A stretch of DNA of 64,000 nucleotides from Chthoniobacterales bacterium (GCA_038207335.1 JBBQZX010000009.1:32001-96000), one strand, 5' to 3'; numbered from the stretch's first letter, positions 3,001 to 21,242 are shown. Notes: generated by a model from the sequence alone, not told the origin. Numbers and translations are program-made.

Positions 3001-4466
3001 CGGTTTTTCCCCGAGGCCCAGACGAGGAGCCGCGCCTGCGCGGCGAGCGTGATACCCGCGGGAAAGGTCCACTTCGTGTGTTTCGTGGCGTTGTCCGTGA
3101 GATGCCAACCCGAGAGGTCCAGCGTGGACGTCGTCGTGTTCCAAATCTCGATCCAGTCGTTCGTCTCGCCGTCCTCGTCCGCGACGCCGCCCGAATTGTC
3201 CGCGAGGAATTCGCTCAGGATTGGATGCCCGAGATCCACCACCGGCTCGGCCGCAAGCGTCGAGAGCCGGAGCGCGTCGATGAAAACCGCCGGCGCATTC
3301 GCCACAACGCGGCCGCTGATGACCATCTGCCCGCTGGCGCTCGCGGTGAAGGCGCCCGCCATTTTGTAGTCGTCATTCGTCGCCGGGAGATTTGCGCCGT
3401 TGAAGCCGTAGTCATCCCACAAAAACGCTCCATTCACCGTCCAGTCGCTCGTGCGCACGCTGCCGCTGCTGCTCGGATCGTAGCTCCACAGCTCCACGAG
3501 ATACGTGGCATTTGGCGTCAGCCCGCTCACCGTCACGTCGAGCCCCGTGCCCGCCGCGGCGCCATTGGCAAAGATGAAATCGCGGAGCAGTTGCGACTCC
3601 GTGAACGCGCCATTGCTCCCCGGCACGCCGAGCCGCTCCCGGTCGTCCACGGTCCCGCCGCTGCCCGCGAGCGTCACCGAGAGCGGGCCAAAAGCGCGCG
3701 TCGCGGTCGTCTGCGTGGCCGTAGTGCCATCGAGGAGGAATTCGCTGAACCCTGCCGCCGTGTAACTCGCGCCGGGGAAACTGCGGTCGTTGAAATCCAG
3801 CGCAAGCACCGGCGTCGCCTGCACCACCGGAGCCGCGAGCTCATCCATGGTGAAGCCATTCAAAAAAACCTGCGCCGTCGTCCCTGCCGCCGCCGGTCGC
3901 CCGCGCAGCGTGAGCCGGCCCGCGGCATCGGCGAGCGCGTTCACGGTGAAGCGGTTCGCCGTGTCCGAGGCCGGCAGCGTCGCGCCGTCGAACGTGTAAT
4001 TATTCGCGGCGAATCGCGGCCCGCCGAGGCCGAGCACCGACCAGTCGCTCGTCCGCGCGCCCGTGCTTCCGCTGTCAAAACTCCACACCGTGAGCGCGTA
4101 TTGCCGCCCCGGCGTCAGCCCCGCGATCACTGCGTCGAGGCCCACGCGATAGAAGTTCGTCGTGCTGTCCCCCGCCGCGAAGATGCAGTCGCGAAACAGC
4201 GGTGCCAGCGTGAGCGCGCCCCCATCCGCGGGCGTCGCTCGGCGCACATCGTCGAGCGCCGCGCCCGAGGCCGGATTCACATCCACGGTGAAAGGCGGCA
4301 CCGCCAGCGTGTCATCCGTGAGCAGATAGCGCGATTGCCCCGCCGCCGTGTCGTCGGGAAAATCCACCGCGTCATTCACATCCACGCGCAGCACGACGGC
4401 GGCATGCGCCATCGAGGCAGCGAGCAGAAGCGCAAGCGCGGGAGCAAGTGGGGAGCGGGCGGGCAT
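1..4466 (-). CDS. Large secreted lamin-tail-domain / CotH kinase / FN3-associated protein (runs off left edge)
   Basis: Not in the ORF track because no stop lies inside the window. ATG 4466 gives MPARSPLAPALALLLAASMAHA (signal peptide). An LTD motif (ISEFLADN...DWIEIWN...DLSGWHLTD), CotH-like motifs and a second LTD follow, and the same frame reads ...PRQFIRLRAT at position 1. Confidence 0.8.
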   Translation of the reverse strand, partial: MPARSPLAPALALLLAASMAHAAVVLRVDVNDAVDFPDDTAAGQSRYLLTDDTLAVPPFTVDVNPASGAALDDVRRATPADGGALTLAPLFRDCIFAAGDSTTNFYRVGLDAVIAGLTPGRQYALTVWSFDSGSTGARTSDWSVLGLGGPRFAANNYTFDGATLPASDTANRFTVNALADAAGRLTLRGRPAAAGTTAQVFLNGFTMDELAAPVVQATPVLALDFNDRSFPGASYTAAGFSEFLLDGTTATQTTATRAFGPLSVTLAGSGGTVDDRERLGVPGSNGAFTESQLLRDFIFANGAAAGTGLDVTVSGLTPNATYLVELWSYDPSSSGSVRTSDWTVNGAFLWDDYGFNGANLPATNDDYKMAGAFTASASGQMVISGRVVANAPAVFIDALRLSTLAAEPVVDLGHPILSEFLADNSGGVADEDGETNDWIEIWNTTTSTLDLSGWHLTDNATKHTKWTFPAGITLAAQARLLVWASGKNRTSNPAALHTNFALSSSAGAFLGLYQPGGATAVTSFSNLPSQRKNVSYGLSGTVEPLTPGFYLTPTPRAANGPQAPGFVADTQFDLKRGFYNAPFAVHITTTTPGATIFYTTDGSEPTTVSTPYPGPAGIPIATTTALRAKAFASPLAPTNTDTQTYIFNVQVGSQPANPPGWPATWGTDSQVAANNGGNGTVPADYEMDPNVVNNTVAGHGIVEALDALPALSLTLNPADFHSIGTGIYTNPLSRGAAWERATAMEWLNPGGGGFHTGVGLKIHGNSSRTPFRMQKHSFTLAFRSEYGDGKLNEKLFSDTNLSAFDKLILHDFFTDGWGMASWATGRYKPDDSVYFRDPWMRKSFAAMGWLATAGRYIHVYINGLYWGMYEVSERIDDNFCADHLGGAPADWDVIADFTNAADGTITAWNSLFTFINSADLTAQAGYESALAQIDIVNFVDYYLLHAHCDAEDWPQHNGYAIRNRNVAGSKWQFLVWDQEIVLDPTLNLDRLSPSAPNTTTDKTAGRLYQKLRVNPEFRLLFADRAHRHLDNGGALSTAAEQARWQAFADILDLPIVAESARWGDVPDSTAYGNAVPAGRTYTREADWLPSVAVVKNSHIPNLHNPSLGISTIAKLRAQSLYPATEPPEFGQFGGNVPASYALEMSAPTGAIYYTLDGSDPRTAYTGTPRGTPYTAPFTLPQTATVKARAKNGTEWSALTEATFIVGTAASALNLAISELHYHPLLTEDHEFIELMNRSAGTIDLTGVHFTAGIAFTFPQGTLLAAGARILVVRNVEAFTAKYGSGLPVAGAYTGGLDNYGEQIALTAADGSDIFRFTYADKAPWPTAPDTAGRSLVLREPGADPASAANWRSSSTVGGNPGISDRVSFTGAPLADIDSDGIPALLEHVFGASDTDPAVGSLPVPAVEMFDIGAGPQPFLTFSATVALAADDATLTAELSTNLTAWDATPAAILYLGETSVSGDLATLKWRAAAPITPGAPRQFIRLRA

Positions 4467-4904
4467 CGGGAGGGGGCTCGGATAATGTCTCGCCCCAGAC
4501 CGCCCCTCGCGCCACGCAAAAGAATAAGACCTTTCTGGAAAACGCGCCGTTGAAATTTGCCTCTTGGAATGACGTTCCTTCCAAACGCCTCTGGCAACCC
4601 AACTGGGGGGAAATACTTCTTGCCCGCGGCTCACCGGGAGAGTCTGCTCCCGCCCGTGCGCGGAGGAAAACGAATCGCGGAGATACCCGGCGCGCCTTCC
4701 GAAGGATTTTTTCCCGTTTGCGTCGGCATATCCCTCGTCCGCAGCTCCCGAGGACGCTCTTTTGACGAAATTTGCCCACTTTTCGCCTCCGGCAAACCCT
4801 CCCTCTCTGTAACCCACCACTGCAAAAACAAAACCACACTCTGTCGCAAGCTCGCGCCGGGATTGCGGCCTGTGGCTGAACTGCCGCCGCACGCCGCATT
4901 TTTC

Positions 4905-5774
4905 ATGACTCCGCTCTCCAAAAGATCCACGACGCCGGGCGATCCGTTTTTTCGCGGGTGGGCGAAGCCGGGGGTGGTACCGCCGGGAGTGGATTGGGCG
5001 GCGGAGCGACTCGCGGGGGAGGGGGAGACGTTGGATGCGATCAGCGGGCACTTTCGGCTGTTTCAGCTCCGCGACGGGCACCGGTTTTCGACGGACGATG
5101 TGCTGACGGCTTGGTATGGGACGGCTTGGTGCCCGAGTGCGCGGACGGTGCTCGATCTCGGGAGCGGGATCGGGTCGGTCGGGATGGTGGCGGCGTGGCG
5201 GTTGCCGGGGGCGCGTTTCGTCACGATCGAAGCGCAGCCGGAAAGTGTGCGGCTGGCGCGGAAGTCCCGCGCGTACAATGGTCTGGAGGATCGGTATGAA
5301 ATCCGAGAGGGGGATTTTCGCGATCCGGCGCTGCTCGGGGTTGATGAGAAGTTCGATCTCGTGCTCGGCAGCCCGCCCTACTTTCCGCTCGGCAGCGGCG
5401 TCGAAAGCGAGCACCCGCAAAAGCTCGCGTGCCGCTTCGAACTGCGCGGCGACATAGCGGACTACTGCGCCACGGCATCCGCGCATCTTGCGCTCGGCGG
5501 TTGGTTCTCGTGCGTCTTCCCCACCGAGCAACTCGACCGCGTCGCGACCTCTGCACGCGCGACTGGACTCGCCATTGTCCGTCGGCGTCCCGTCGTCCTG
5601 CGCGAAGACGAGTCGCCGCTGCTAACGCTTTTCGCGATGGTGCGCGCGGATCATCTGCCAGAGCCGATCCGCAGCCAGACGCGGGTCGAGCCCGCGCTCA
5701 CGATCCGCCAGCGCGACGGGCAAGTGCACCCCGAGTATTCCGCCGTGAAACTCTCCTTTGGCTTTCCCCCCTGA
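4905..5774 (+). CDS. SAM-dependent methyltransferase, tRNA1(Val) A37 N6-methylase (TrmN6/YfiC)-like
   Basis: GHRFSTDDVL, VLDLGSGIGSVG (motif I) and SPPYF (NPPY-like motif IV). Start moved to ATG 4905. Confidence 0.8.
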   Translation: MTPLSKRSTTPGDPFFRGWAKPGVVPPGVDWAAERLAGEGETLDAISGHFRLFQLRDGHRFSTDDVLTAWYGTAWCPSARTVLDLGSGIGSVGMVAAWRLPGARFVTIEAQPESVRLARKSRAYNGLEDRYEIREGDFRDPALLGVDEKFDLVLGSPPYFPLGSGVESEHPQKLACRFELRGDIADYCATASAHLALGGWFSCVFPTEQLDRVATSARATGLAIVRRRPVVLREDESPLLTLFAMVRADHLPEPIRSQTRVEPALTIRQRDGQVHPEYSAVKLSFGFPP

Positions 5775-8496: not shown

Positions 8497-9453
8497 TCAG
8501 GCGCGGGGATGGAATTTGTGATGCACCGCTTTGAGCCGCCGCTGATCGACATGCGTGTAAATCTGCGTAGTCGAAATGTCGGCGTGGCCGAGCAGTTCCT
8601 GAATGATGCGGAGGTCGGCACCGTTGCCGAGCAGATGGGTGGCGAATGAATGCCGGAGGAGATGTGGATAGACGTTGATATCGATGCCGGCGTTTTTCGC
8701 GCACGCCTTCACGATTTGCCAGATGCGGACGGTCGTGAGCTTTGTGCCGCGCGAGGAGAGGAAGACTTCGCTGCCCGTTTTTTTGCGGACGAAATCGGGG
8801 CGTTCGTTCGCGAGGTAGAGCGCGATCGCGGCGCACGCTTTTGCCCCGACGGGCACGAGCCGCGTCTTGTTGCCTTTGCCGGTGACGCGGATGATTCGCG
8901 AGTCGAGGTCGAGATTTTCGAGCCTCGCATTCACGAGTTCGGAGACGCGCAGACCGCTTGCATACAGGAGTTCGAGGATGGCGCGGTCACGCAGGGCACG
9001 CGGGACATTCTCCGGCACGCCGTCGAGGAGATGCTCGACTTGGAGTTCGTTCATCGTTTCCGGCAGGTATCGCTCGGTGCGCGGGAGCGGCAGCAGTTCC
9101 GCGGGATCGCGTTCGATCCGGCGACGCGCCTGGAGCCAGCGGAAGAAGATTTTGATCGCGACGACGATGAGCTTGATCGAGGCCGCCGCGAGGCCGCTGC
9201 GTTTTCGATGCGCGAGGTAGTCGGTGATTTGCGCGTGCGTGATTTCGCGGGGCGCGACGCTCGTTTCCGGCATCTCCGCGCCGCTGCTCGTGAGCTGCGC
9301 GACGGCTGCCTCGCCGAGCGCTTTCACGATTTGCTTTCGCTCGAGCCACGCGGTGAAGCCCTCGAGAGAGAGGCGCGTGGAGATTTGATAATTGTCCGAG
9401 AGCCCGCGCTCGGTCGCGAGGTAGAGGATGAAGTCGTCGATCGACTCGCGCAT
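8497..9453 (-). CDS. xerD: Site-specific tyrosine recombinase XerD
   Basis: RDRAILELLYASGLRVSEL, GKGNKTRLVP, HLLRHSFATHLL.NGADLR.IQELLGH..ISTTQIYTHV. ATG overlaps the purC stop. Confidence 0.9.
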   Translation of the reverse strand: MRESIDDFILYLATERGLSDNYQISTRLSLEGFTAWLERKQIVKALGEAAVAQLTSSGAEMPETSVAPREITHAQITDYLAHRKRSGLAAASIKLIVVAIKIFFRWLQARRRIERDPAELLPLPRTERYLPETMNELQVEHLLDGVPENVPRALRDRAILELLYASGLRVSELVNARLENLDLDSRIIRVTGKGNKTRLVPVGAKACAAIALYLANERPDFVRKKTGSEVFLSSRGTKLTTVRIWQIVKACAKNAGIDINVYPHLLRHSFATHLLGNGADLRIIQELLGHADISTTQIYTHVDQRRLKAVHHKFHPRA

Positions 9454-10316
9454 CAGCGGGTGAGCCGGTCGAGCGCTTCGAGATACTTTTCGCTCGTCCT
9501 GCAGATGACCTCGTCGGGCAGCGGCGGCGCGGGCGGCGTCTTGTCCCAATCGAGTGTTTCGAGGTAGTCGCGGACGAATTGCTTGTCGTAGCTCGGCGGG
9601 CTGATGCCGAGCCGATGTTGATCCGCGGGCCAGAAGCGCGAGGAGTCGGGCGTGAGGCATTCGTCAATCAGGATCACGCGCCCATCGAGCAGTCCGAATT
9701 CAAACTTCGTGTCCGCCACGATGATCCCGCGCTCGGAGGCAAATGCGCGTCCTTCCTCATAAATCCGCAGGCTCAGCGCGCGGACTTGTGTCGCGACATC
9801 GTCCCCGATGAGACGGCGGCATTCGTCCCAGGCGATGTTCTGATCGTGCCCGCTCTCCGCTTTAGTTGAGGGCGTGAAAATGGTTTCCGGCAGCCGCTCC
9901 GCCTGCTGCAAACCCGCCGGAAGTGCGACGCCGCAGATGCTCTGCGATGCCTGATATTCCTTCCATCCAGAGCCCGCGAGGTAGCCGCGGACGACGCACT
10001 CGACGGGCAGCGGCTTCGCTTTTTTTACGATCATCGATCGTTGCGAAAGCTCTTCCCATCGGCCTTGGACGGCATCGGGGAGATTTGCGAGATCCGCGTC
10101 GAGGAAGTGATTCTCCACGAAATCGAAGCGCGAAAACCAGAAACGCGAGAGGCTGGTGAGCACCTCGCCTTTTCGCGGAATGCCATTGGGCAGGATGCAG
10201 TCGAAGGCCGAGATGCGGTCCGTCGCGACGAGCAGCAGGCGGTCGCCGAGGTCGAAAATCTCGCGCACTTTTCCACTCGCGATTTTTGTGATGCCGGGCA
10301 GGTCGAGGGTGAGCAT
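9453..10316 (-). CDS. purC: SAICAR synthetase
   Basis: GKVREIF, TDRISAFD, ECVVRGYLAGSG, DTKFEFG, DECLTPDSSRFW. Confidence 0.96.
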   Translation of the reverse strand: MLTLDLPGITKIASGKVREIFDLGDRLLLVATDRISAFDCILPNGIPRKGEVLTSLSRFWFSRFDFVENHFLDADLANLPDAVQGRWEELSQRSMIVKKAKPLPVECVVRGYLAGSGWKEYQASQSICGVALPAGLQQAERLPETIFTPSTKAESGHDQNIAWDECRRLIGDDVATQVRALSLRIYEEGRAFASERGIIVADTKFEFGLLDGRVILIDECLTPDSSRFWPADQHRLGISPPSYDKQFVRDYLETLDWDKTPPAPPLPDEVICRTSEKYLEALDRLTR

Positions 10317-12327: not shown

Positions 12328-12518
12328 GAGTGAGGAAAAACTCTAACGGCTCGAAGCACCGTAAGTCGCGCGGATTCTCGGATCGCCCCGCTCGCTGCAC
12401 CGAACCGGTTGATTCGACTGACTTCAAAAGAGTGGGAAGATTAGCTTGGCGGCACCTCCGTTGGGCCCCTGTCGGCTGATCGTTTGTTCGGGGCGGCTGG
12501 CGCGCCGGGTGCGCGCTA

Positions 12519-12645
12519 CAGCATACAACCCGCGGTAATGTAAAGCGGCGGGGCGCCGGGAGGCCTCCTTTGGAGAGCCGGTGCGGTGCGCGGAGAAGTG
12601 GCCGGCTGGTCCGCCGCCGCTTTGCATTACCGCTGTTGTATGCTG
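12519..12645 (-). repeat. attC-like long imperfect inverted repeat
   Basis: CAGCATACAAC-AGCGG-TAATGCAAAGCGGCGG ... CCGCCGCTTTACATTA-CCGCGG-GTTGTATGCTG. It has AAC/GTT cores, 5/6-nt spacer asymmetry and is 127 bp long. Confidence 0.5.
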
Positions 12646-12945
12646 AGCGGAGCGCGGGCCTGGCGCGGCGGCTGCCTCCTTGCGCGTTTCGTGGGGGGAC
12701 GAACGCGAGCAGCCGCCGTGACAGGCCCGCGCGCAGCGGTTCGCGCAAGCTCCCGGCGTGACAGCCGCGCGGCGGGAACGGGGCGGGCGGGGGTTAGGGT
12801 CCGCTGCGCGGCCAGCAGGCACCGTGACGCGCGAGGGAGCGGCGCGGTTAAGCGGGGCCGCTCGCTCGCGTGGCGCGATGCCTGCACGGTTGGGGCACGC
12901 AACCCACCCGCGGCGGGACGCCGCCACACTTCAACGGCAAGGCGG

Positions 12946-13755
12946 TTAAGCGCGGCGTTTCGAAGCAATCGCGACGATGGCAAGCAAGGTGAGGATTCCC
13001 ACCACCCACGGCCACACCGGCGCTCCGCGCTCAACGGTCGGCGCGGGACTTTCAGCAACCTTTGGTGCCGACGGAGCAACCGGCATGGCAGTTGGAGTCG
13101 CCATCGGCCGTGCAAACGTAGTCGGGGGCGACTGATCTGGAATAGGACTCGGTGCCTTTGGCAGTTCGGGTTTGGACGCTTCGGCCTCGCGTTGCAACGT
13201 TGCCTGCCAAAACTCAGATTCGTCTGTCCCCATATCCGCAAGCCATGCATCCCGCTTCTTCCGCTCCAAAGTTAGACTCGCATTCGAAGAACGTCGGTGA
13301 ATGGAAAGCAATAACACCTCGTCAGCGACATGCCACCGCAGGACACGGGTAACACTTGTGGACGCATCTTCAAAGTTCGGGACATCTGATAATCTGGCGG
13401 AACCATGCTGCTCTTGGAGTTTGGCTGCCATCCCTTTAAACGCTTCCTCGGCAACAGCAGCTGGAAGTAATGGATCATCAGTCCAGTAGCTGAGAGCATT
13501 GAATTTACCTCCGTCTAACTTGGCACGCCCCGCAAAAGTCAGTCCGAACGCGGAGAGTTTCTTAAGTTTTTGCTCGGTCGCTTTTGAATCTAAAGCGACG
13601 GGCGCATCCAGGTATCGAGCTGCTTTTGCGTTTGTTGGACTGCCTAAGTTCTGCGCGACAATACCGAGGAGTTCCTCGTCGCTAGCCAGCGCGGGGCCAT
13701 ACGCTAGCAACCCGCAGATAAACAGCCCGCTGGTTCGTAGCAAACAAAGATTCAT
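12946..13755 (-). CDS. Exported, C-terminally membrane-anchored protein; candidate immunity protein
   Basis: Signal peptide, Pro-rich linker and C-terminal TM helix plus KRRA. ATGA overlap with the upstream amidase-bearing gene. Confidence 0.7.
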   Translation of the reverse strand: MNLCLLRTSGLFICGLLAYGPALASDEELLGIVAQNLGSPTNAKAARYLDAPVALDSKATEQKLKKLSAFGLTFAGRAKLDGGKFNALSYWTDDPLLPAAVAEEAFKGMAAKLQEQHGSARLSDVPNFEDASTSVTRVLRWHVADEVLLLSIHRRSSNASLTLERKKRDAWLADMGTDESEFWQATLQREAEASKPELPKAPSPIPDQSPPTTFARPMATPTAMPVAPSAPKVAESPAPTVERGAPVWPWVVGILTLLAIVAIASKRRA

Positions 13756-16700
13756 TGGGCGGGTTGTGCGCGAAGGTCATCAATGCTCGCATTCCCCAAT
13801 GCTTTAGCAGCTTCCTCACGCATCCTGTTAGCCGTGGCTGACAAGGTTGCATTTCCCTCGTTGAAAAGGAGATCAGCGTTTGTGTTAGACATCCATTCCA
13901 TCTCGATCAGCGCCGCTCTGCATGGTGTGTGGCCGGCGATGTTGCCGTTATAGTTAGGGGTTGCTGGGTCGGTGCTGTCGGAAAGAGTATCCAGTCCCTT
14001 TTGCAGATTAGCTTCATGCTGCTCCGAAGTAATCCCGTCAGTTGGAGCGTTGCGGCTCGCTTGCGGCTCAACAGCCGCGATTGCCGTCTGCACCCCTTGG
14101 CGTAGTCGAATCGCAAGAGCTTGATCTTCTGCAAGATTAAGGTTGCCAGTTGCGTCCCACATTCCAAATGGATGTCGCCTCAAGGGAACTCCATCTACGG
14201 AGTTGAAGTGGATGCTGACATAAACATCACAACCATTCTCCCTTGCCACTTTCGTCCGGTCAGGGAACGAGACGTTCGCCGTTCCGGTGCGTGTGAGAAA
14301 GACTTTGAGTTGAAGATGTTCAGTGTCTCGACGTCTCCGCAAGTCCGCTGCCATACGCTGCGCAACATCGAGGGCAAAGGCGTGCTCTTGGGCTCCGGTT
14401 GTTACTCCCGTGCCGCCGAGCGCATTCGATCCTCCAGCCGCACCAATTCCGTGACCGGGATCAATTACGATAACGCCAGGCACTTCCAAATCGATGAGTT
14501 CAAGCGGTGAAGTAGTTCCTTCGATCTGAATCTTGATGCGGGCTTTGTTCAGGCCTATTGGCGGAACATTCACTCGAATCGCAGTAAACCCGTCGGCATC
14601 AATGGTCGTTTCCCCTTGTTCTTGAGAGACCCGACGATAGCTGTGAGCAGTAAAAGTTGTTGATGCTTCAAACCGATCCCGGTGAGCTGCTACCGCGCGA
14701 TCCCAGCTACCCCGGAAGACCGGTGGAAGATTCAGACCATTCGGATCAAAGGACCGGGTAAAGAGAGGATCCATCGACCAAGTAACTTTCTTGTCCTTGA
14801 GGGCCGAACCGATCTTCACTTTCAATTCACGCCACGCGATTCGGATGGCAGCCGCGTCGTTTTGGTTGGCAGCGGGATCCCTCTCAACCATCGCATTGGA
14901 TTGAGGGTTTGGTTTCGGTTTCTCAGAGCCTGCAATCTCGTTGCCATCGTCATCCCTGAGCTTGGGCGCTAACTCGACTACTTCCACTGGGAGGAGGAGG
15001 GCGGGGTTGGAAAGCCAAGCAATGTTTTCTGGATCCGACACGGTGCCTTCGGGTGTCCAGAATGTGCCGACGCAATTTCCAGCAGAGTTTATTGCGTTTG
15101 GATAGATGGGAGTCGGCGGTTCGAGGGTCGGGTCTCGAGATTCCGGTAGCGGGAAGGCTTGGAGGGCGACATGGAAATATGGGTCGCTGGGAGTCCATTC
15201 GGCTATGCAATGTTGATTGAGAAGCCACTGCCCTTGGCCGGTGGCATCGGAACCATATACGTCGGCGTAAAAGATGATGCTCGTCCGGTGGGTGATCGGA
15301 TTCGGGTTCGTGATCATTACCGGGTTCGCGTTCTGAAACTGCGATCTCAGTTGTGGGGGAAAGTTATTCATGAAAACTCTCTCTCGTACGGAATCCGATA
15401 ACTCGGATGTTTGGATGAAGCCGAGATACCCCCATCCTTTGCGCGTATGCGATGGGTTGTCTGGGAGTGGGTCCGGAAAGTCCTCGGTCGGATTCTCCCA
15501 CTGGTAACTAATCCCATCATTGAGAAGTCCGATGACCTCCCTTCGGTCATTGATCGCAGTCGGAGTGCAGCGGCCGAGTGAAGTGTAGGTTCCGGCGAGG
15601 TTCCAAATGAGGTTGTCGGTCACCACGATGTTTCCAGTTACAATATCTCTGCCTGTGATGTTTATAATCTCCAAGCCATTCTCGCTTATCGCGACGAAGT
15701 TCGCGCCTTCTATTGCTGTGATCGGAGTGCCAACGAGAAATTGGCGAAATGGCGCTCTTACGAGACCTTCATAGTCATCAAATTCGCCGTGGATAGTCCC
15801 AGGATAGGCAAGCTCCCCCCCTTTCACTCCTGTGCCCGTCACTTTGTAAATGACGCAGCCCATCTCTGGCGTAGTGTCAGCCCATACTCCGTTCCGCAGG
15901 TCTGGTGGAGCTGGCGGATTGTCGTGTGGCAAAGGAATGAGGTATGCAGGTACTGGAACATCGTCAGGTATGCCTCGCTCGTAATTCCACTCGTAATCGC
16001 CTTCCTTTTTTTCCCAAGTATTGCATGAGCCAACAAGTTCTCCCCATGTGGAGACGGAATTGCCAATGTATAACTTTTCTTTAGATACGTCACCATCCCA
16101 AGTTGTTTCTTTCTTGAATTCTTTCACACTGGTGATCGCGCCATCTGCCCACGCACTCGCGATATATCTGTTTGACTGAAAAAATGCGGCTACCCACGCC
16201 ACATGAGTCTGTTCGTCGATCGCCAAAAACTCGTTCTGTCCAGGTTGAACCGGCTCGCCATTAAAGGTGAACTTGCTCAAATCGATCAGCGCATACGCTT
16301 TTACGGGGATGTCTTGACTCCGCAAGGGGTCAGTGGGGTATTGGTCGAGGTAGTCTGGGACGCCATCCCCGTCGCTATCTTGGGCGCTAGTCGGGATATT
16401 TGGATCGGTGCCGTTGGCGATTTCGTCGCCATCGCTGATGCCGTCGCCGTCGGTGTCGGAGTTGTGGGGGTCGGTGTGGATGCCTCCACCGTTGTCACCG
16501 CCGATTTCGTCGATGTCGCGGATGCCGTCACCGTCACTGTCGCGGTTGAAATCGAATGCGAAGAGGTTCTTGACTTGGCCGATGTTGACAAGGGTGAAGT
16601 CGTTGGTGCCTGGGGGGGTGAGATTCCACGGGTAGATGCTGCCGAGGCCAACCTCTGCGAGGCGGTCGTAAAAGGGCTTTGCAATGGTTTTGAGTTGAAA

Positions 16701-17075
16701 GAGAGTGACGGCTGCATACTCGTCGTGGGTGACGCCTGACGTGGGAGCCCATGCGGCGACGAGGTTTTCGATTGTTGAGCCGGCACCACCGGGGAGCCTG
16801 CTGAATTCCACGGCGGCTTGGGTGACGATTTGTTTGACTTGGCCGGTATTGGGGGCCGTAAAGTTGTCCACGCTCGGGTAGCTGCCGGGCCATTGGGGCG
16901 TGGAGTCGATGGAATTGGTGCGCTTGATCACGTCGCGAGTGAACCACCAATCGGGGTATTCGGGCGGTTTGTCGAGGGGTATGGGACCCGCGATGCTGAC
17001 GGTGGCGCTCCAGACGAGGAGGAGCAGCCAGGCGGTGACGCGGGTGGCCATGGGAGGGGAGGTGCGATGTTGCAT
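13752..17075 (-). CDS. Secreted multidomain protein: 3x N-x-GQ-x-K repeats, TSP3-like Ca-binding repeats, LLPVE linker, C-terminal N-acetylmuramoyl-L-alanine amidase (Amidase_3)
   Basis: DSDGDG repeats; amidase motifs IVIDPGHG...E, VSIHFNS, AALIEMEWMSN. Start may be ATG 17051. Confidence 0.8.
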   Translation of the reverse strand: MQHRTSPPMATRVTAWLLLLVWSATVSIAGPIPLDKPPEYPDWWFTRDVIKRTNSIDSTPQWPGSYPSVDNFTAPNTGQVKQIVTQAAVEFSRLPGGAGSTIENLVAAWAPTSGVTHDEYAAVTLFQLKTIAKPFYDRLAEVGLGSIYPWNLTPPGTNDFTLVNIGQVKNLFAFDFNRDSDGDGIRDIDEIGGDNGGGIHTDPHNSDTDGDGISDGDEIANGTDPNIPTSAQDSDGDGVPDYLDQYPTDPLRSQDIPVKAYALIDLSKFTFNGEPVQPGQNEFLAIDEQTHVAWVAAFFQSNRYIASAWADGAITSVKEFKKETTWDGDVSKEKLYIGNSVSTWGELVGSCNTWEKKEGDYEWNYERGIPDDVPVPAYLIPLPHDNPPAPPDLRNGVWADTTPEMGCVIYKVTGTGVKGGELAYPGTIHGEFDDYEGLVRAPFRQFLVGTPITAIEGANFVAISENGLEIINITGRDIVTGNIVVTDNLIWNLAGTYTSLGRCTPTAINDRREVIGLLNDGISYQWENPTEDFPDPLPDNPSHTRKGWGYLGFIQTSELSDSVRERVFMNNFPPQLRSQFQNANPVMITNPNPITHRTSIIFYADVYGSDATGQGQWLLNQHCIAEWTPSDPYFHVALQAFPLPESRDPTLEPPTPIYPNAINSAGNCVGTFWTPEGTVSDPENIAWLSNPALLLPVEVVELAPKLRDDDGNEIAGSEKPKPNPQSNAMVERDPAANQNDAAAIRIAWRELKVKIGSALKDKKVTWSMDPLFTRSFDPNGLNLPPVFRGSWDRAVAAHRDRFEASTTFTAHSYRRVSQEQGETTIDADGFTAIRVNVPPIGLNKARIKIQIEGTTSPLELIDLEVPGVIVIDPGHGIGAAGGSNALGGTGVTTGAQEHAFALDVAQRMAADLRRRRDTEHLQLKVFLTRTGTANVSFPDRTKVARENGCDVYVSIHFNSVDGVPLRRHPFGMWDATGNLNLAEDQALAIRLRQGVQTAIAAVEPQASRNAPTDGITSEQHEANLQKGLDTLSDSTDPATPNYNGNIAGHTPCRAALIEMEWMSNTNADLLFNEGNATLSATANRMREEAAKALGNASIDDLRAQPAQ

Positions 17076-17093
17076 TGGGCGATGGCCTCGAGT

Positions 17094-18785
17094 CTAGGGC
17101 ACTGGGTTGGGACCGAATGCCCCCATGGAGAGGTCGCCTTGGGGCTCGATGTGGACGGGGCCGTCGAAGCGGGCGGTGCCGGCGACGTGGAGCTGGGCTA
17201 GCGGCTGCGCGATGCCGATACCGACGTCGCCGGCGGGGGTGATTCGCACTCTTTCGACGGATGGGACTGGGTTGGCTCCGTTCCCGGTGCCGGCGGTTTT
17301 GATGAGGACGGCACCGCCTTGTCCGTTGCCGAAGCCGTCGCCGCCGGCGATGGAGAGGTCGGCCCCGGCGACGGTTTCGGCAGATGCGCCGGTGGCGTGG
17401 AGGGTGAAGCCGATCGGGTTTGCCGATGCTTTGCCGTTGCCGAAGTAGCCGTTGGCGATGAAGCCGTTCCCGGCGAGGTTGTCTCCTCCGACAATCAATT
17501 GATTGCTGCTGGATGCGGTGATTGAATCGTCTGAGTAAGCTCCGAGGAATATGTTGAATGAACCGAGTAAATTATGCAGGCCTGCAGTATACCCAATGGC
17601 TGTGTTGAAATTCCCGGTCGTATTGCCGATTCCGGCTGCGCTACCAATGAAAATGTTATGAGAGCCCTCCGTGTTCTCGGCTCCTGTCACGGCTCCAATG
17701 AATACGTTCGAGTAGCCCGACGTGTTTCGATAGCCGGTGCTGTCGCCAATAAACTGATTCTCACTGCCGACCGTGTTACCTCTGCCAGCGAAAACCCCCA
17801 TGAAGGTGTTGGCTATCCCAGATGTGTTATTCTCCCCAGCTTGTCGGCCAATGAAATTATTGTAAGTCCCGGTCGTATTATAGTATCCGGACCCAGCACC
17901 CATGAAGTTGTTAAAGGCTCCGGTGGTGTTGAATACACCGCTGTTGACAGAGATGAAATTGTTGCAGTAACCTGTGGTGTTGCTATACCCGGCGTTTCCT
18001 CCCACGAAATTGTTGCAGCTTCCTAAATCGTTGTTGCGACCGGCATTTGCTCCAAGGAAGTTGTTGCCGCCACCTTGCGAGTTTGACAATCCAGCGCCGG
18101 TGCCGGCGAAAAAGTTACCCGCTCCTTGAGAGCCGGGATTTCCCGCGCCCGCGAGGGCAATTCCGTCGGGGCTGCTGCGAGATAAGATTTCGACGCCGTT
18201 GATTTTTAAGGCACCGCCTTGGATGTTGAGGGCAGGAATGGTGAGTGGCGAACCAGCGGTGATGTTGCAGATGCCGTTGTAGCCATTGGCGCTGCTGGCG
18301 AATCTGCTCTCTGTGAGTACATTGGAGCCGTTGATCGTGATGCTTCCGTTGCTGTTTGGATTGAGAGCGATGGTCGGCGTATTCGAATTCGACGGATACA
18401 AGAGTAAATCGTTCGACACATCGAGGGTCATCTGCGGGAAAGAAGTGCCATTGAGATCGGCTTTTTCCCACTGCAGCGCGATCGTCGGCTTGGCTAGGAA
18501 AAATCTTAGAACGGAAGTGGGGAGAGCCGGGTCTTCACCGTAGCTCAGAGTCAGCGCCTGCGATTCTCCAATCTGAGTCGTTGCCCTGCCAAAGTAAAAC
18601 TCGCTGCCTGCAACATCGAGGACATTGTGAAGGGTGGTGGCACCGTTGACATCTAGCGAACCGCCGATGGTAGCATTGCCGTTGACATCGAGCTCGGTGA
18701 AGGATTCAGGGAAGGCAGGAATCTGGGAGGAAAGGAGGAGGGCGATGCAGGTGGTGAGGATGCGGTGGGAGGCTTGTTTTTTCAT
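17094..18785 (-). CDS. Secreted fibre/adhesin-like protein with 14-aa NNFxGxxAGxxNTTG repeats
   Basis: Signal peptide, LDVNG repeats, ~14 beta-roll-like repeats, ERVRITPAGDVGIG..P.AQLHVAG, C-terminal PQGDLSMGAF. Confidence 0.75.
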   Translation of the reverse strand: MKKQASHRILTTCIALLLSSQIPAFPESFTELDVNGNATIGGSLDVNGATTLHNVLDVAGSEFYFGRATTQIGESQALTLSYGEDPALPTSVLRFFLAKPTIALQWEKADLNGTSFPQMTLDVSNDLLLYPSNSNTPTIALNPNSNGSITINGSNVLTESRFASSANGYNGICNITAGSPLTIPALNIQGGALKINGVEILSRSSPDGIALAGAGNPGSQGAGNFFAGTGAGLSNSQGGGNNFLGANAGRNNDLGSCNNFVGGNAGYSNTTGYCNNFISVNSGVFNTTGAFNNFMGAGSGYYNTTGTYNNFIGRQAGENNTSGIANTFMGVFAGRGNTVGSENQFIGDSTGYRNTSGYSNVFIGAVTGAENTEGSHNIFIGSAAGIGNTTGNFNTAIGYTAGLHNLLGSFNIFLGAYSDDSITASSSNQLIVGGDNLAGNGFIANGYFGNGKASANPIGFTLHATGASAETVAGADLSIAGGDGFGNGQGGAVLIKTAGTGNGANPVPSVERVRITPAGDVGIGIAQPLAQLHVAGTARFDGPVHIEPQGDLSMGAFGPNPVP

Positions 18786-18819
18786 AGGTCGAGAGGTTGG
18801 GCGGTGTGAGTTGCGTTTC

Positions 18820-18850
18820 GGGTCGCCAAGAGGGTCGCCAAGAGGGTCGA
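18820..18850. repeat. 12-bp tandem repeat (2.5 copies) in intergenic spacer
   Basis: gggtcgccaaga gggtcgccaaga gggtcga. Confidence 0.7.
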
Positions 18851-18862
18851 TGTTTCCGTCGC

Positions 18863-19477
18863 CTAGCCGGCGAAGGGGCAGGTGACGATGTCGCTGTCTT
18901 GGCCGACTTCGGTGTCGCCGATGATGCCGCGGGCCATGTATTCACGGTCTTCGGGGGCGCCGGGGACGAGGAGGGGGGTCTGGTCGTCGTAGGGGAAAGT
19001 TTTGCGGGCGGGGGCGACGAGGAGCCACGCGGCGTTGTTGCGGCGCAGGTAGATATTGACGCGTTCGGCGTAGTTTTTGGTGCCGGTGATGCGGACGTGG
19101 CCGCGCATGGGCTCGACTTTGATGACGGGCTTGATGGTGTTTGGCGGGGGCGTGTAGGCGCTGGTGAAGATGCGCATGGCATTGCCCAAGCCGGTGGTGA
19201 AGGCCGGGTTGGCCTTGATCTGGTGGATGAAGTCGCGCAGCGGGGTGTTGCTGTCGTGGAAGAGCTGGTGGGCGTCGCCGCTGGCGGTATCGAGGACGGT
19301 CTGGGCGTCGATGACGGCCTGGTAGGCGGCGATGAGCGGGTCGATGAGGGCGTTGAACGCGGTGACGGCGGCGGCGTTCAGGCTGAGGGTGGTGGCGTTG
19401 TCGGCGACCTCTTGCTTGAGGTCTTTGAGCCACTGGAGGCGGTTTGCGAAGGAGTCGGGGATGAAGTCGTTGGCCAT
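18863..19477 (-). CDS. Hypothetical cytoplasmic protein (helical N-half, FN3/Ig-like C-half)
   Basis: Strong GC3 bias; amphipathic helices followed by a beta-rich C-terminus (..IYLRR...W...YDD..P...EY.A.GI.GD.EVG..SD.V). Confidence 0.75.
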   Translation of the reverse strand: MANDFIPDSFANRLQWLKDLKQEVADNATTLSLNAAAVTAFNALIDPLIAAYQAVIDAQTVLDTASGDAHQLFHDSNTPLRDFIHQIKANPAFTTGLGNAMRIFTSAYTPPPNTIKPVIKVEPMRGHVRITGTKNYAERVNIYLRRNNAAWLLVAPARKTFPYDDQTPLLVPGAPEDREYMARGIIGDTEVGQDSDIVTCPFAG

Positions 19478-19596
19478 GGTTCGGGGTAGGTTGGTGGTTC
19501 TTGGTTTCGCTGTTTAGAGGTGAAAACGGGCGGTTTCTCTGCGGCGCGGGCGAGGTTAGGGGTGCCGGAGGGTGAATGTGAGGGCGTCGCCTCTGT

Positions 19597-19869
19597 AGAG
19601 GAGGTTTCCAAGCGAGCTGGCGGGGTTTCCAGCGGGATTGGCGGGTACGCCAATGCGATTGGCATACTGGCGGATTGGATTGGCGGGGTTTCCAATCGAA
19701 TTGGCGTACTCGCCAAGTCGAATGGCGGGGTTTCCAATGTGATTGGTGGGTACGCCAATCCGATTGGAGTAGTTCCCAGCGCAATTGGCGTACTTGCCAA
19801 TCGGGCTGGCGGCGCTGTGGATCGAGATGGCAGGGTAGCGGACCGGGCTGGATAGGATGCCGGACGACG
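19597..19869. repeat. Degenerate 21-bp tandem array, ~13 units
   Basis: TGG recurs exactly every 21 nt from 19618 to 19849. Most central units are imperfect palindromes (ATTGG-N8-CCAAT). Confidence 0.85.
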
Positions 19870-20187
19870 CGGCGACGGTGCGGGGGTTCGCGGGGAGGGG
19901 GTTTTCGCGCGTGGGGGACACGGGAGCACAGTTGAGCGGGTGGCCAATGCGGTGTCTGTCCGGGATGAGCCCCCATTTTGAGGTGGAGACGCTGGAGGGG
20001 AGGAGGCGTGGGCATTTGCTTACGCTGAGGAGGGGATTGGTGCGATTTTCCCCGGACACTGCTCCCCTACAAATGGGGCGGTTCAGTGTTCAAATCGCGG
20101 CATTTTGAGTGTTGTTTGGTGGAGGTGAGGGCGCTGATTTGGTTGCGTTTCTCTGCCATGCGTCGGGGGTGAAAAGCGGGGGATGGT

Positions 20188-20213
20188 GGTCCTTCGTTGC
20201 ACTCAGGATGACA
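20188..20213. repeat. REP-like palindrome (TCCTTCG..GC.CTCAGGATGACA type)
   Basis: ggtccttcgttgcactcaggatgaca. Confidence 0.6.
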
Positions 20214-20252
20214 GGGTGGGGAGGGGTGCGATCGTCGTTGCGGTGAGCAAGT

Positions 20253-20305
20253 TTGTAGGGCGACCGCTTCGGTTGCCCAAGGCAGGCGGAGTGCCTGCCC
20301 TACAA
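20253..20305. repeat. GTAG-type REP doublet
   Basis: ttgtagggcgaccgcttcggttgccc aa ggcaggcggagtgcctgccctacaa. Confidence 0.7.
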
Positions 20306-20396
20306 TTTTCCGGCAAGCTGAATCGCTTTGGGGAAATTCTTGAGGCAGGGTGTGGGTGAAGGTGCTCTACTCGGGCTGTGTCACGTTGCTCCCTCG

Positions 20397-21242
20397 ATGA
20401 TTGATCCTTTTAAGAAGCCACGCGTGCTGGTGGTGATGGCTGTGCCGGGGCTGCGGACGGGGATGTCGATGTTTCTCGAAAAGGAGGGGTCGCTGGAGGT
20501 GTGCGGGGAGACGTGCAAGGCGGCGGAGGCGCGGGCAATGTGCGGGGAGTTGCTCCCGGATGCGATCGTGCTGGACCCAGAGGTGGCGGGGCTGGGGCTG
20601 GCGCTGGTGCGCGATTTCAAAAAACTGCACCGGGCGGCTTCGACGGCGCTGTATGCGAGGCGGATCGATGCGGAGCAGGTGCGCCGGGCTTTCAAGGCGG
20701 GGGCGCAAGGTTATTTCTCGCAATCGGAGGAGTTGCCGACGGTGGTGGCGGAGCTGGTGCGGGTCTGCTGGGGGGAGCGGGTGATGAGCCCGGCGGTATC
20801 GCGGCAGATGACGCGCGATTTTACAAAGGGGAATGACAGGACGGCCGGGCTGGAGCGGATTTCGGCGCGGGAGCAGGATGTCCTATGGCTGCTGGGCCAT
20901 GGGAAGGGGGAGTCGGCGATCGCGCTGGAGCTGGGGGTGGGTGTGAAGACGGTGGAGACGTATTTCGAGCGGCTGAAGCAGAAGCTCTCGCTGAAGGATG
21001 CCGCGCAACTGCTGGCGGTGGCACGGGAATATGCGCGGCAGCACTCGGAGGTGAGCGGCCGCGCCATGGAGGCGGGGCGAGAGGGATCGGCAGGCGCGGA
21101 TGTGGGGGAGAAGGCGGTGGCGATGCTGTCGGAGGTGGGTGCGCCGCCGCTGATGCGGGGGTTCTTCGCGACTGATTTTCTCGCGCCCCCATCGGGTGCG
21201 CGGGGGACTCGCAGCTTCCGCTACTCGCGGAGGCGGGTGTAG
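20397..21242 (+). CDS. NarL/LuxR-family response regulator with degenerate receiver
   Basis: REC fold plus ISAREQDVLWLLGHG....IALELGVGVKTVETY HTH. Confidence 0.8.
   Translation: MIDPFKKPRVLVVMAVPGLRTGMSMFLEKEGSLEVCGETCKAAEARAMCGELLPDAIVLDPEVAGLGLALVRDFKKLHRAASTALYARRIDAEQVRRAFKAGAQGYFSQSEELPTVVAELVRVCWGERVMSPAVSRQMTRDFTKGNDRTAGLERISAREQDVLWLLGHGKGESAIALELGVGVKTVETYFERLKQKLSLKDAAQLLAVAREYARQHSEVSGRAMEAGREGSAGADVGEKAVAMLSEVGAPPLMRGFFATDFLAPPSGARGTRSFRYSRRRV

Follow-up and report, generated by a model that had tools for sequence, protein, structure and literature searches.

A 64,000-nucleotide stretch of the genome of a Chthoniobacterales bacterium (GCA_038207335.1 JBBQZX010000009.1:32001-96000; hereafter the window) contains four co-oriented open reading frames (ORFs) on its minus strand, which encode proteins of 204, 563, 1107 and 269 amino acids (aa). 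A first-pass annotation of the sequence had described these genes as tightly spaced and proposed that they form a polymorphic-toxin system, in which a fibre-like protein and a carrier with an amidase tip are accompanied by a membrane-anchored immunity protein. The ORF listing agrees with the described layout: the gap between the 204- and 563-aa genes is 77 bp, that between the 563- and 1107-aa genes is 18 bp, and the 1107- and 269-aa genes share 4 bp, ATGA, at 13752-13755. No Pfam or NCBIfam family was matched by the 204-, 563- or 269-aa proteins.

The amidase cassette and its downstream partner

The 1107-aa protein is composed of a signal peptide, an N-terminal module, calcium-binding repeats, a long middle region, a beta-sandwich domain and a C-terminal amidase domain (Table 1). 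In Pfam, TSP3_bac matched residues 207-226 (E 1.3e-7) and Amidase_3 (PF01520) matched residues 869-1073 (E 1e-15; 58.6 bits against a cut-off of 27). NCBIfam returned weak amidase matches on the same protein, and the amidase also matched endolysin profiles in the PHROG collection. The 1107-aa protein has H875, E897, H956 and E1058, none of which varies across the 68 aligned cassettes; from the known chemistry of the Amidase_3 family we take them to be the zinc ligands (His/Glu/His) and the catalytic Glu. Both the DSDGDG (TSP3) repeats and the amidase with intact zinc ligands had been predicted from the sequence, and both are borne out by Pfam and by the cassette alignment. We found no homologue of the middle region, residues 261-693, for which the only library match was a faint one to a HAF repeat (NCBIfam, E 0.085). 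Pfam detected neither RHS repeats nor a PAAR, VgrG or Hcp domain in the 1107-aa protein.

When residues 265-860 were searched, 70 non-self Verrucomicrobial proteins were matched, all of them carrying PF01520. The local BLAST alignments begin at residues 607-703 in all 70 cases, and at residues 692-694 in 37 of them, and they run to the end. The matched proteins are 611-1820 aa long and 33-75% identical, with N-terminal regions that are otherwise unalignable. Residues 694-1107, which comprise the beta-sandwich and the amidase, are a conserved, exchangeable cassette with a fairly sharp boundary. An AlphaFold2 (AF2) model of the cassette, built from a 68-row alignment, reached a predicted local distance difference test (pLDDT) score of 91.7 and a predicted TM-score (pTM) of 0.92, and in it cassette residues 1-172 form a beta-sandwich, with an Amidase_3 fold after it. 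Foldseek matched this model to 4rn7 (E 6e-14), CwlV (1jwq) and AmiC2 (5emi), with TM-scores of ~0.74.

The beta-sandwich domain opens the cassette with LLPVEVVELAPK. The motif LLPVE begins at residue 694, and its extended form LLPVEVVELxPK opens the cassette in 49 of the 70 proteins. Bare LLPVE was found in 10 of 119 other fetched proteins, none of which has the extended VVELxPK context. The motif had been taken for a linker beyond which diverse toxin tips would be found, and this did not hold up. LLPVE forms the first strand of the conserved amidase cassette and the amidase always follows, so that we rejected it as a junction before varied tips.

Among 401 genomes sampled across the phylum Verrucomicrobiota, the cassette was found in two (G000 and G119). 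The locus search of genome contigs was dominated by the generic VIDPGHG pattern, with 2 true cassette loci among 80 in the 5 of 64 parts covered. A separate, canonical Amidase_3 protein of 445 aa (159 bits) is encoded elsewhere in the genome that contains the window.

We then compared what follows the amidase at 24 cassette loci, namely the window, G119, two from genome records (L021 and L022) and 20 from metagenome contigs. Two loci were excluded, one that runs off its contig (L118) and one that is frame-broken (L119), and the remaining 22 reduce to 16 distinct loci. A partner ORF of 242-318 aa was found at 16 of 16, with its start between 4 bp before and 11 bp after the amidase stop. The junctions comprise ten ATGA overlaps, two 1-bp overlaps and four gaps of 1-11 bp. 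Thus the small downstream gene for an exported, transmembrane (TM)-anchored product that had been pointed out is conserved with the amidase, in that a gene of this type stands next to it at every distinct locus. As read from the sequences, the signal peptide of the 269-aa protein leads into a domain of ~165 aa, which a Pro-rich linker joins to a C-terminal TM segment followed by RRA. Similarly, all partner products begin with a signal peptide or a signal anchor, and in many of them the C-terminus is a TM segment with a basic tail.

Two partner families can be distinguished. Family A is found at the window, L021, L101, L111 and L104, and family B, which has four subgroups, at eleven loci. With hhalign the two families gave a relatedness probability of 1.9%, and we rejected the idea that they are remote homologues. 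In a tree of the 16 cassettes, those with family A partners form one clade (support 100/99) that requires a single change, a value as low being reached in 0 of 500 shuffles; the subgroups of family B follow the remaining amidase clades. This shows that partners have been both co-inherited with the amidase and replaced, and stops short of proving cognate specificity.

Strong matches to the 269-aa protein in the phylum sample were found only in G000 and G119, the same two genomes that hold the cassette. A match in G190 is weak (E 4e-4), covers the Pro-rich part and lies in a 1522-aa frame that contains a stop. In the Atlas the 269-aa protein fell into unnamed clusters only (0.93). In G119 the amidase gene is followed by a B-type gene, a small TM gene (120-aa protein) and an A-type gene, an order that was read across two contig ends, L017 (G119:C12) 1-740 and L019 (G119:C42) 1-1642. 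These contig ends are nearly identical within the family B partner gene, and their few differences could also mean that there are two copies of the locus. The row of partner genes in G119 resembles a small array of immunity genes.

The N-terminal module and the fibre tail

Alignment of the 1107-aa protein with proteins of relatives defined an N-terminal module, which consists of PxWW and three (D/E)(D)[YF]AxxNxGQ[LV]K repeats with helices and is preceded by a signal peptide and followed by TSP3 repeats. The triple repeats that the first-pass annotation had noticed are real: three D[FY]xxxNxGQ[LV]K copies are kept in relatives, and the second copy is degenerate (TLFQLK) in the 1107-aa protein. 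No Pfam family matched the module in the 1107-aa protein or in nine relatives' proteins, no NCBIfam family matched it, and a module profile found no match among PDB sequences. Pfam also gave no match to the MafB N-terminal domain (DUF1020) on residues 1-200. In these searches the delivery module does lie outside the named families, as had been suggested.

The module occurs once in its own genome, in 11 of 41 close genomes and in 38 of the 401 phylum genomes (30 of 185 sampled genera). The frames that bear it in the phylum sample range from 80 to 3321 aa, many being of 230-355 aa. An AF2 model of the module from a 42-row alignment (pLDDT 89, pTM 0.84) is a compact helical domain. Foldseek found nothing for this model at E <= 0.001, and its top rows were S-layer homology (SLH) domains, with 3pyw at E 0.27. 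When the model was aligned with VIA to 48,161 chains, two SLH domains ranked first (Z 6.0 and 5.8; next 4.9), in alignments of 107-108 residues with a root-mean-square deviation of 5.0-5.4; these scores, like those from Foldseek, are within the chance range for helical models. The best Atlas lead was a cluster with 65% SLH members at a noise-level score of 0.78. The SLH family itself, PF00395, had no match in the 1107-aa protein at E <= 0.1 and none in the whole genome.

In relatives, we found that the module heads proteins with different C-terminal parts. One is a 2941-aa Rhs protein (L128) with a DPEGL core and a C-terminal part (CT) of ~270 aa, overlapped by a 227-aa ORF without a signal peptide; another is a 3987-aa Rhs protein (L129). 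The L128 Rhs gene and its 227-aa candidate immunity ORF are followed, ~1 kb downstream, by two near-identical tandem ORFs of 74-79 aa (L128:11302-11772, G012:C58). In two further module proteins, L123 and L127, the C-terminal regions (560-600 aa) match each other at 28% identity (E 7e-54) and bear the lipase-like GxSxG motifs AHSMGN and AHSLGN. Each is coupled by ATGA to an N-terminally anchored partner; the two partners share homology with one another (E 9e-12) and show no relation to those of the amidase. The module stands at the start of at least 12 of the 70 cassette proteins, the others having different signal-peptide-bearing N-termini or being fragments. The suggestion that one leader is shared by different C-terminal tips is therefore upheld by amidase, GxSxG lipase-like and Rhs-CT tips, each with a small gene of its own.

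The module also heads proteins with RCC1, LamG, Ig, FN3, HAF or no known domains. The idea that it is a region specific to toxin delivery is contradicted by such non-toxin-like cargo and by stand-alone proteins of 230-355 aa. These consist of the module and TSP3 repeats without cargo and follow fibre-tail genes, for example at L158 (G370:C6). At L160 (G119:C4) a 182-aa mini-fibre is followed by two stand-alone module proteins in tandem.

The gene upstream of the 1107-aa gene encodes the fibre-like protein, residues 212-436 of which matched virion-structural and tail-spike profiles in PHROG. Its relatives align over the repeat region only. At six of nine loci in relatives, the module gene is immediately preceded by a gene for a signal-peptide protein that shares the tail of the 563-aa protein. 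In these six proteins the tail has the consensus [IV]xPxGD[LIV]SMGxFxxGxxP and stands at or near the C-terminus, and their bodies differ, having YadA-head repeats, CBM96 with collagen, or no family. Fibre lengths range from 182 to 735 aa. A search with the fibre C-terminus gave 8 non-self matches, among which the tail is present only in P0192 and P0195.

The same pairing was seen at the level of DNA. In the 41 close genomes the pattern GD-x-[ST]-MG-x-F gave 14 matches, compared with 0 for a reversed control, and ten of these have a same-strand module match 20-185 bp downstream. In the phylum sample it gave 22 matches against 2 control matches. Ten of these 22, or 9 of 21 once the window's own match is set aside, are followed on the same strand by a module match, within 500 bp in nine cases and at 1.25 kb in one. 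In one genome the two are fused: a 1052-aa ORF in G279 (L157:2873-6031, G279:C68) has a signal peptide, a short fibre-like stretch and the tail, with the module beginning five residues later. Judged from gene order, fibre-tail and module genes are kept together as a pair across the phylum, so that the earlier link between the fibre gene and the carrier gene is one that recurs.

The inserted segment and its surroundings

Comparison with congeners indicates that the locus lies in a strain-specific segment of five genes, the four described above and a LuxR-type response regulator. In three congeners (G005, G008 and G006) the peroxiredoxin gene directly adjoins the 498-aa gene, and none of the five genes was found at the corresponding site. 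The recombinase, purC and aminotransferase genes hold the same places in all three. Two other congeners, G004 and G007, were uninformative for this comparison. Homology to G005 and G008 ends at window position 12328; with this end point and the absence of the five genes, 12329-21220 is an insertion of ~8.9 kb. A full-length orthologue of the 1107-aa protein was found in 0 of 40 relatives.

Table 1. Features of the locus and of the surrounding insertion, in window coordinates
Feature	Position	Strand	Basis
Strain-specific inserted segment, ~8.9 kb, five genes	12329..21220		comparison with congeners
269-aa gene	12946-13755	minus	ORF listing
269-aa partner (family A), candidate immunity protein	12946..13755	minus	ATGA overlap and locus comparison
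1107-aa gene	13752-17075	minus	ORF listing
Amidase_3 catalytic domain, residues 866-1107	13755..14479	minus	Pfam, fold
Conserved beta-sandwich domain, residues 694-865	14480..14996	minus	homology start and AF2
Unique middle region, residues 261-693, GC 0.518	14997..16295	minus	no homologue covering
TSP3-type calcium-binding repeats, residues 186-260	16296..16520	minus	Pfam PF18884
N-terminal module, residues 28-185: PDWW and three NxGQ[LV]K helical repeats	16521..16994	minus	alignments, AF2
Signal peptide of 1107-aa protein, residues 1-~30, ...VSIA/GP	16986..17075	minus	read from sequence
563-aa gene	17094-18785	minus	ORF listing
563-aa fibre-like protein, signal peptide and 14-residue-type Asn/Gly-rich repeats	17094..18785	minus	PHROG, sequence
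Conserved fibre C-terminal tail VHIEPQGDLSMGAFGPNPVP	17097..17156	minus	tail comparison in relatives
GDLSMGAF motif within fibre tail	17115-17138	minus	tail comparison in relatives
204-aa gene	18863-19477	minus	ORF listing
Five TTGGC-N6-GCCAA palindromes, spacing 21 or 42 bp	19603..19809		pattern search
LuxR-type response regulator, divergent from 204-aa gene	20328..21242	plus	Pfam GerE and Response_reg

The guanine-plus-cytosine (GC) content of the window is 0.622 overall. In the 1107-aa gene it is 0.605-0.613 for codons 1-260 and 0.518-0.549 for the remainder, and the sequence for the domain of the 269-aa protein has a GC content of 0.531. These counts confirm that the 5' end of the 1107-aa gene is richer in GC than the rest of the gene and than the small downstream gene, as the first-pass annotation had stated. 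In the fibre gene the last 135 codons have a GC content of 0.677, compared with 0.530 for the first 428. The fibre C-terminus and the module are thus host-like in GC, and the fibre body, cargo and partner are low; because of this mosaic, the tail and module may mark a resident junction around which variable parts were swapped.

The 204-aa gene had been counted as a member of the system, and we found that it does not belong there. It lies inside the insertion and is co-oriented with the other genes, but it is not co-conserved with the amidase or the module: no cassette locus, and none of the relatives' module loci, gave a match to the 204-aa protein. Its family is multi-copy and without a library match, with three matches in its own genome and six in G006, and the homologues occupy unrelated contexts. 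Some of the G006 matches are at contig ends, as expected of repeated or mobile DNA. Both full-length copies in the genome, the one in the window and a paralogue on contig 1 (L149:10048-10677), are divergent from a LuxR-type response regulator. With no match at cassette loci, several copies and this pairing with a regulator, we rejected the 204-aa gene as a part of the delivery system; it may belong to the transcription unit or to its control, outside the conserved system. The region between the LuxR-type and 204-aa genes holds five of the window's seven matches to the palindrome pattern, which resemble a possible operator array on one face of the helix. Scans for sigma-70 promoters and terminators gave results at or below shuffle level.

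On one side the insertion is bordered by genes for a XerC-like recombinase, purC, an aminotransferase and a peroxiredoxin, and on the other, beyond the LuxR-type regulator, by those for the 498-aa protein, PNPOx, DedA, DeaD, PgsA and Der (Pfam). Since the XerC-like recombinase is kept at the same place in congeners that lack the insertion, it is not the integrase of the insertion. As listed, its XerC/XerD-type ORF (8497-9660) overlaps the purC ORF by ~200 bp. The edge of the insertion at 12329-12945 is a stretch of 617 bp without a called gene, with a GC content of up to 0.76 and two inverted repeats with arms of 29-34 nt; it has no homology to the G005 or G008 spacer. At window positions 3-5531 (minus strand) an ORF of at least 1843 aa with Lamin-tail, CotH kinase, CHB_HEX_C_1 and Fn3_assoc domains runs off the window.

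The first-pass annotation had seen no type VI secretion system (T6SS), Rhs or phage genes. We likewise found none within ~10 kb of the locus, and TssC (PF05943) and RHS-repeat matches are absent from the whole genome, which is 94.7% complete. With respect to contact-dependent inhibition (CDI) and two-partner secretion (TPS), Pfam found no TPS domain or CdiB-type match, either in the four proteins or among the neighbours. The genome has four secretin genes.

Interpretation of the locus

Our analysis suggests that, on balance, the 1107-aa protein is likely an antibacterial toxin that cleaves peptidoglycan and the 269-aa exported, membrane-tethered protein is likely its immunity protein. Judged from its sequence features, the locus likely represents an undescribed, fibre-linked type of Sec-dependent polymorphic toxin, with an amidase as the toxin and an immunity protein. 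In such a system the fibre, the 1107-aa protein and the 269-aa protein would be exported by Sec, and the cargo would be tethered to the fibre tail, the cell surface or an envelope polymer by the module, which may be an SLH-like anchor of pseudo-threefold form. The amidase would cut the N-acetylmuramic acid-L-alanine (MurNAc-L-Ala) bonds in the peptidoglycan of neighbouring cells, and the partner would block the amidase in the producer's periplasm. We regard the locus as accessory because it has no orthologue in the 40 relatives, is an insertion relative to G005, G008 and G006, is low in GC and exists alongside a separate canonical amidase.

The arrangement has parallels among known toxins. The Tae/Tai pairs of the T6SS follow the same logic as the window pair, a wall-cleaving effector with periplasmic immunity encoded by the adjacent gene. 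Unlike these, the fold here is Amidase_3, no T6SS sheath gene was found in the genome, and a Sec signal peptide is present. In WapA of Bacillus subtilis, an Rhs toxin anchored to the wall, a signal peptide and N-terminal wall-binding repeats are combined with a C-terminal toxin, and the gene for immunity, WapI, lies downstream; the module-bearing Rhs proteins of relatives are laid out in the same way. In contrast to WapA, the hosts here are diderm and the anchor is different, and the tip in the window is an amidase that would act outside the cytoplasm, with a periplasmic, membrane-tethered partner.

The Maf system of Neisseria is a Sec-dependent polymorphic toxin in which an upstream gene encodes the dedicated partner that the toxin requires for its export to the surface (PMC7738311). 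Like the window locus, mafA-mafB-mafI has a conserved N-terminal domain and the order helper, toxin, immunity. However, the module has no sequence relation to Maf, with no match to DUF1020 or another Pfam family, and the upstream protein here is fibre-like with a conserved C-terminal tail and is not an outer-membrane protein of the MafA type; its role in export or docking is our proposal. Zhang et al. 2012 describe polymorphic toxins of the Sec/type II secretion system (T2SS) kind with lineage-specific constant N-terminal domains, MAFB-N, MicroscillaN and APD1/APD2, and propose that the constant domain serves surface anchoring or clustering (PMC3482391). Sec-dependent polymorphic toxins with clade-specific constant N-terminal domains are thus an already known kind. 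The module resembles such domains in that a signal peptide and a clade-restricted constant domain are joined to variable bodies and tips. It differs in being another domain, found in 30 of 185 sampled Verrucomicrobiota genera, paired with a fibre and also present on non-toxin proteins or alone. The passages of PMC3482391 that were consulted do not mention it.

Several points weigh against the toxin-immunity reading. In the relatives, the exact tail pattern lies upstream of only 10 of 15 module genes with an intact start. The module is no marker of toxins, since it is also found on FN3, LamG, RCC1, HAF and Ig proteins and alone. Its modelled fold appears weakly SLH-like, which we treat as a lead. 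The tree leaves cognate specificity unproven because linked genes co-diversify whatever their function, and there is no evident route into a diderm target. In addition, an anchor domain joined to an amidase is also the classic layout of an autolysin. The solved complexes of Amidase_3 proteins with partners are, from their structure titles, the activator pairs AmiB-EnvC, LytH-ActH and CwlD-GerS, and therefore a conserved partner fits activation as well as it fits immunity.

The main rival, which we consider unlikely, is a self-directed role. Here the protein would be an anchored, wall-remodelling amidase that the module tethers in the cell's own envelope, and the membrane partner would be an activator or regulator, as in the partner-bound Amidase_3 structures in the PDB (8c0j, 7tj4 and 7rag). 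The known activator pairs resemble the window pair in combining the catalytic fold with a dedicated exported or membrane partner. Their partners activate housekeeping amidases and are conserved core genes, whereas the window pair is rare, horizontally placed, provided with a toxin-type leader and served by an interchangeable partner family. The weak resemblance of the module to SLH wall anchors and its presence on many non-toxin proteins would fit this role. Like SLH domains, the module has three tandem helical repeats of ~50 aa that, in its model, form one compact N-terminal domain on diverse surface proteins; unlike them, it has no PF00395 match, its Z was only 6.0, and its motif NxGQ[LV]K differs from the SLH motif. 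Proteins that combine SLH domains with an amidase have been described.

A wall-remodelling enzyme is harder to reconcile with the sparse, patchy distribution of the cassette, found in 2 of the 401 phylum genomes and in none of 40 relatives. The cassette also lies within a low-GC insertion and is accompanied by a canonical amidase encoded elsewhere. Partners of an unrelated family are found in other clades and two types are stacked in G119, which is usual for immunity genes and unusual for activators, and the module stands at the head of Rhs toxins as well. We rate the self-directed amidase lower than the toxin on account of the cassette's rarity, the insertion, the replacement and stacking of partners and the toxin company of the module.

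It is rather improbable, in our view, that the 1107-aa protein is a diffusible exoenzyme, bacteriolytic or peptidoglycan-scavenging, that leaves the cell through a type II secretin while the partner protects the producer's wall only in transit and the fibre is an unrelated neighbour or an adhesin, with no contact-dependent delivery. Its Sec signal peptide, the four secretin genes and the lack of a T6SS sheath gene in the genome are consistent with this route, and the variable middle regions could be substrate- or cell-binding modules. However, the tail and the module are positionally linked across the phylum and fused once, which points to a tethered complex, and the module-bearing Rhs proteins are weapons of a typical contact-dependent kind (for Rhs biology, see PMC3482391). 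A decayed prophage with a lysis and tail-fibre module (endolysin and tail fibre) is very improbable and was rejected: the low-GC insertion and the PHROG matches of the 563-aa protein and the amidase would suit it, but those matches are at the level of repeats, no other phage gene is present in the insertion or its flanks, the neighbours are housekeeping genes, congeners without the insertion keep the XerC-like integrase gene at that position, the 563- and 1107-aa proteins both carry signal peptides, and the same gene pairs recur in chromosomal, non-phage contexts.

Returning to the toxin-immunity reading, the adjacency of the tail and module genes and the single fusion lead us to propose that tail and module dock physically. 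A broader idea, which we put forward tentatively and hold with some doubt, is that they are the two halves of one docking unit, an undescribed, phylum-wide apparatus that arms trimeric surface fibres with exchangeable, Sec-exported cargo. If this is true, the cargo would include not only Rhs, lipase and amidase toxins, whose immunity genes are matched to them, but also adhesins and enzymes, and the apparatus would be a contact weapon and display system independent of the type V, VI and VII secretion systems (T5SS, T6SS, T7SS).

The module, the fibre tail, the tail-module pairing, the beta-sandwich-amidase cassette and the two partner families appear to be new. The module, the tail motif, the pre-amidase beta-sandwich and the two partner families fall in no family of the libraries searched (Pfam, NCBIfam and PHROGs). 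We found no description of such a system in the literature on Verrucomicrobial polymorphic toxins or on amidase effector-immunity pairs, in which motifs of this kind are not text-searchable.

Verrucomicrobiota are abundant in soil, water and guts, and little is known of how they fight and what they display on their surfaces. The locus offers a peptidoglycan amidase together with candidate natural protein inhibitors of it. If the partner is instead an activator, partner-controlled amidases would be extended to a new phylum. If docking holds, the fibre tail and module would represent a new way for a diderm bacterium to arm its surface fibres with exchangeable toxins, and there would be four sequence signatures by which such loci could be found in metagenomes.

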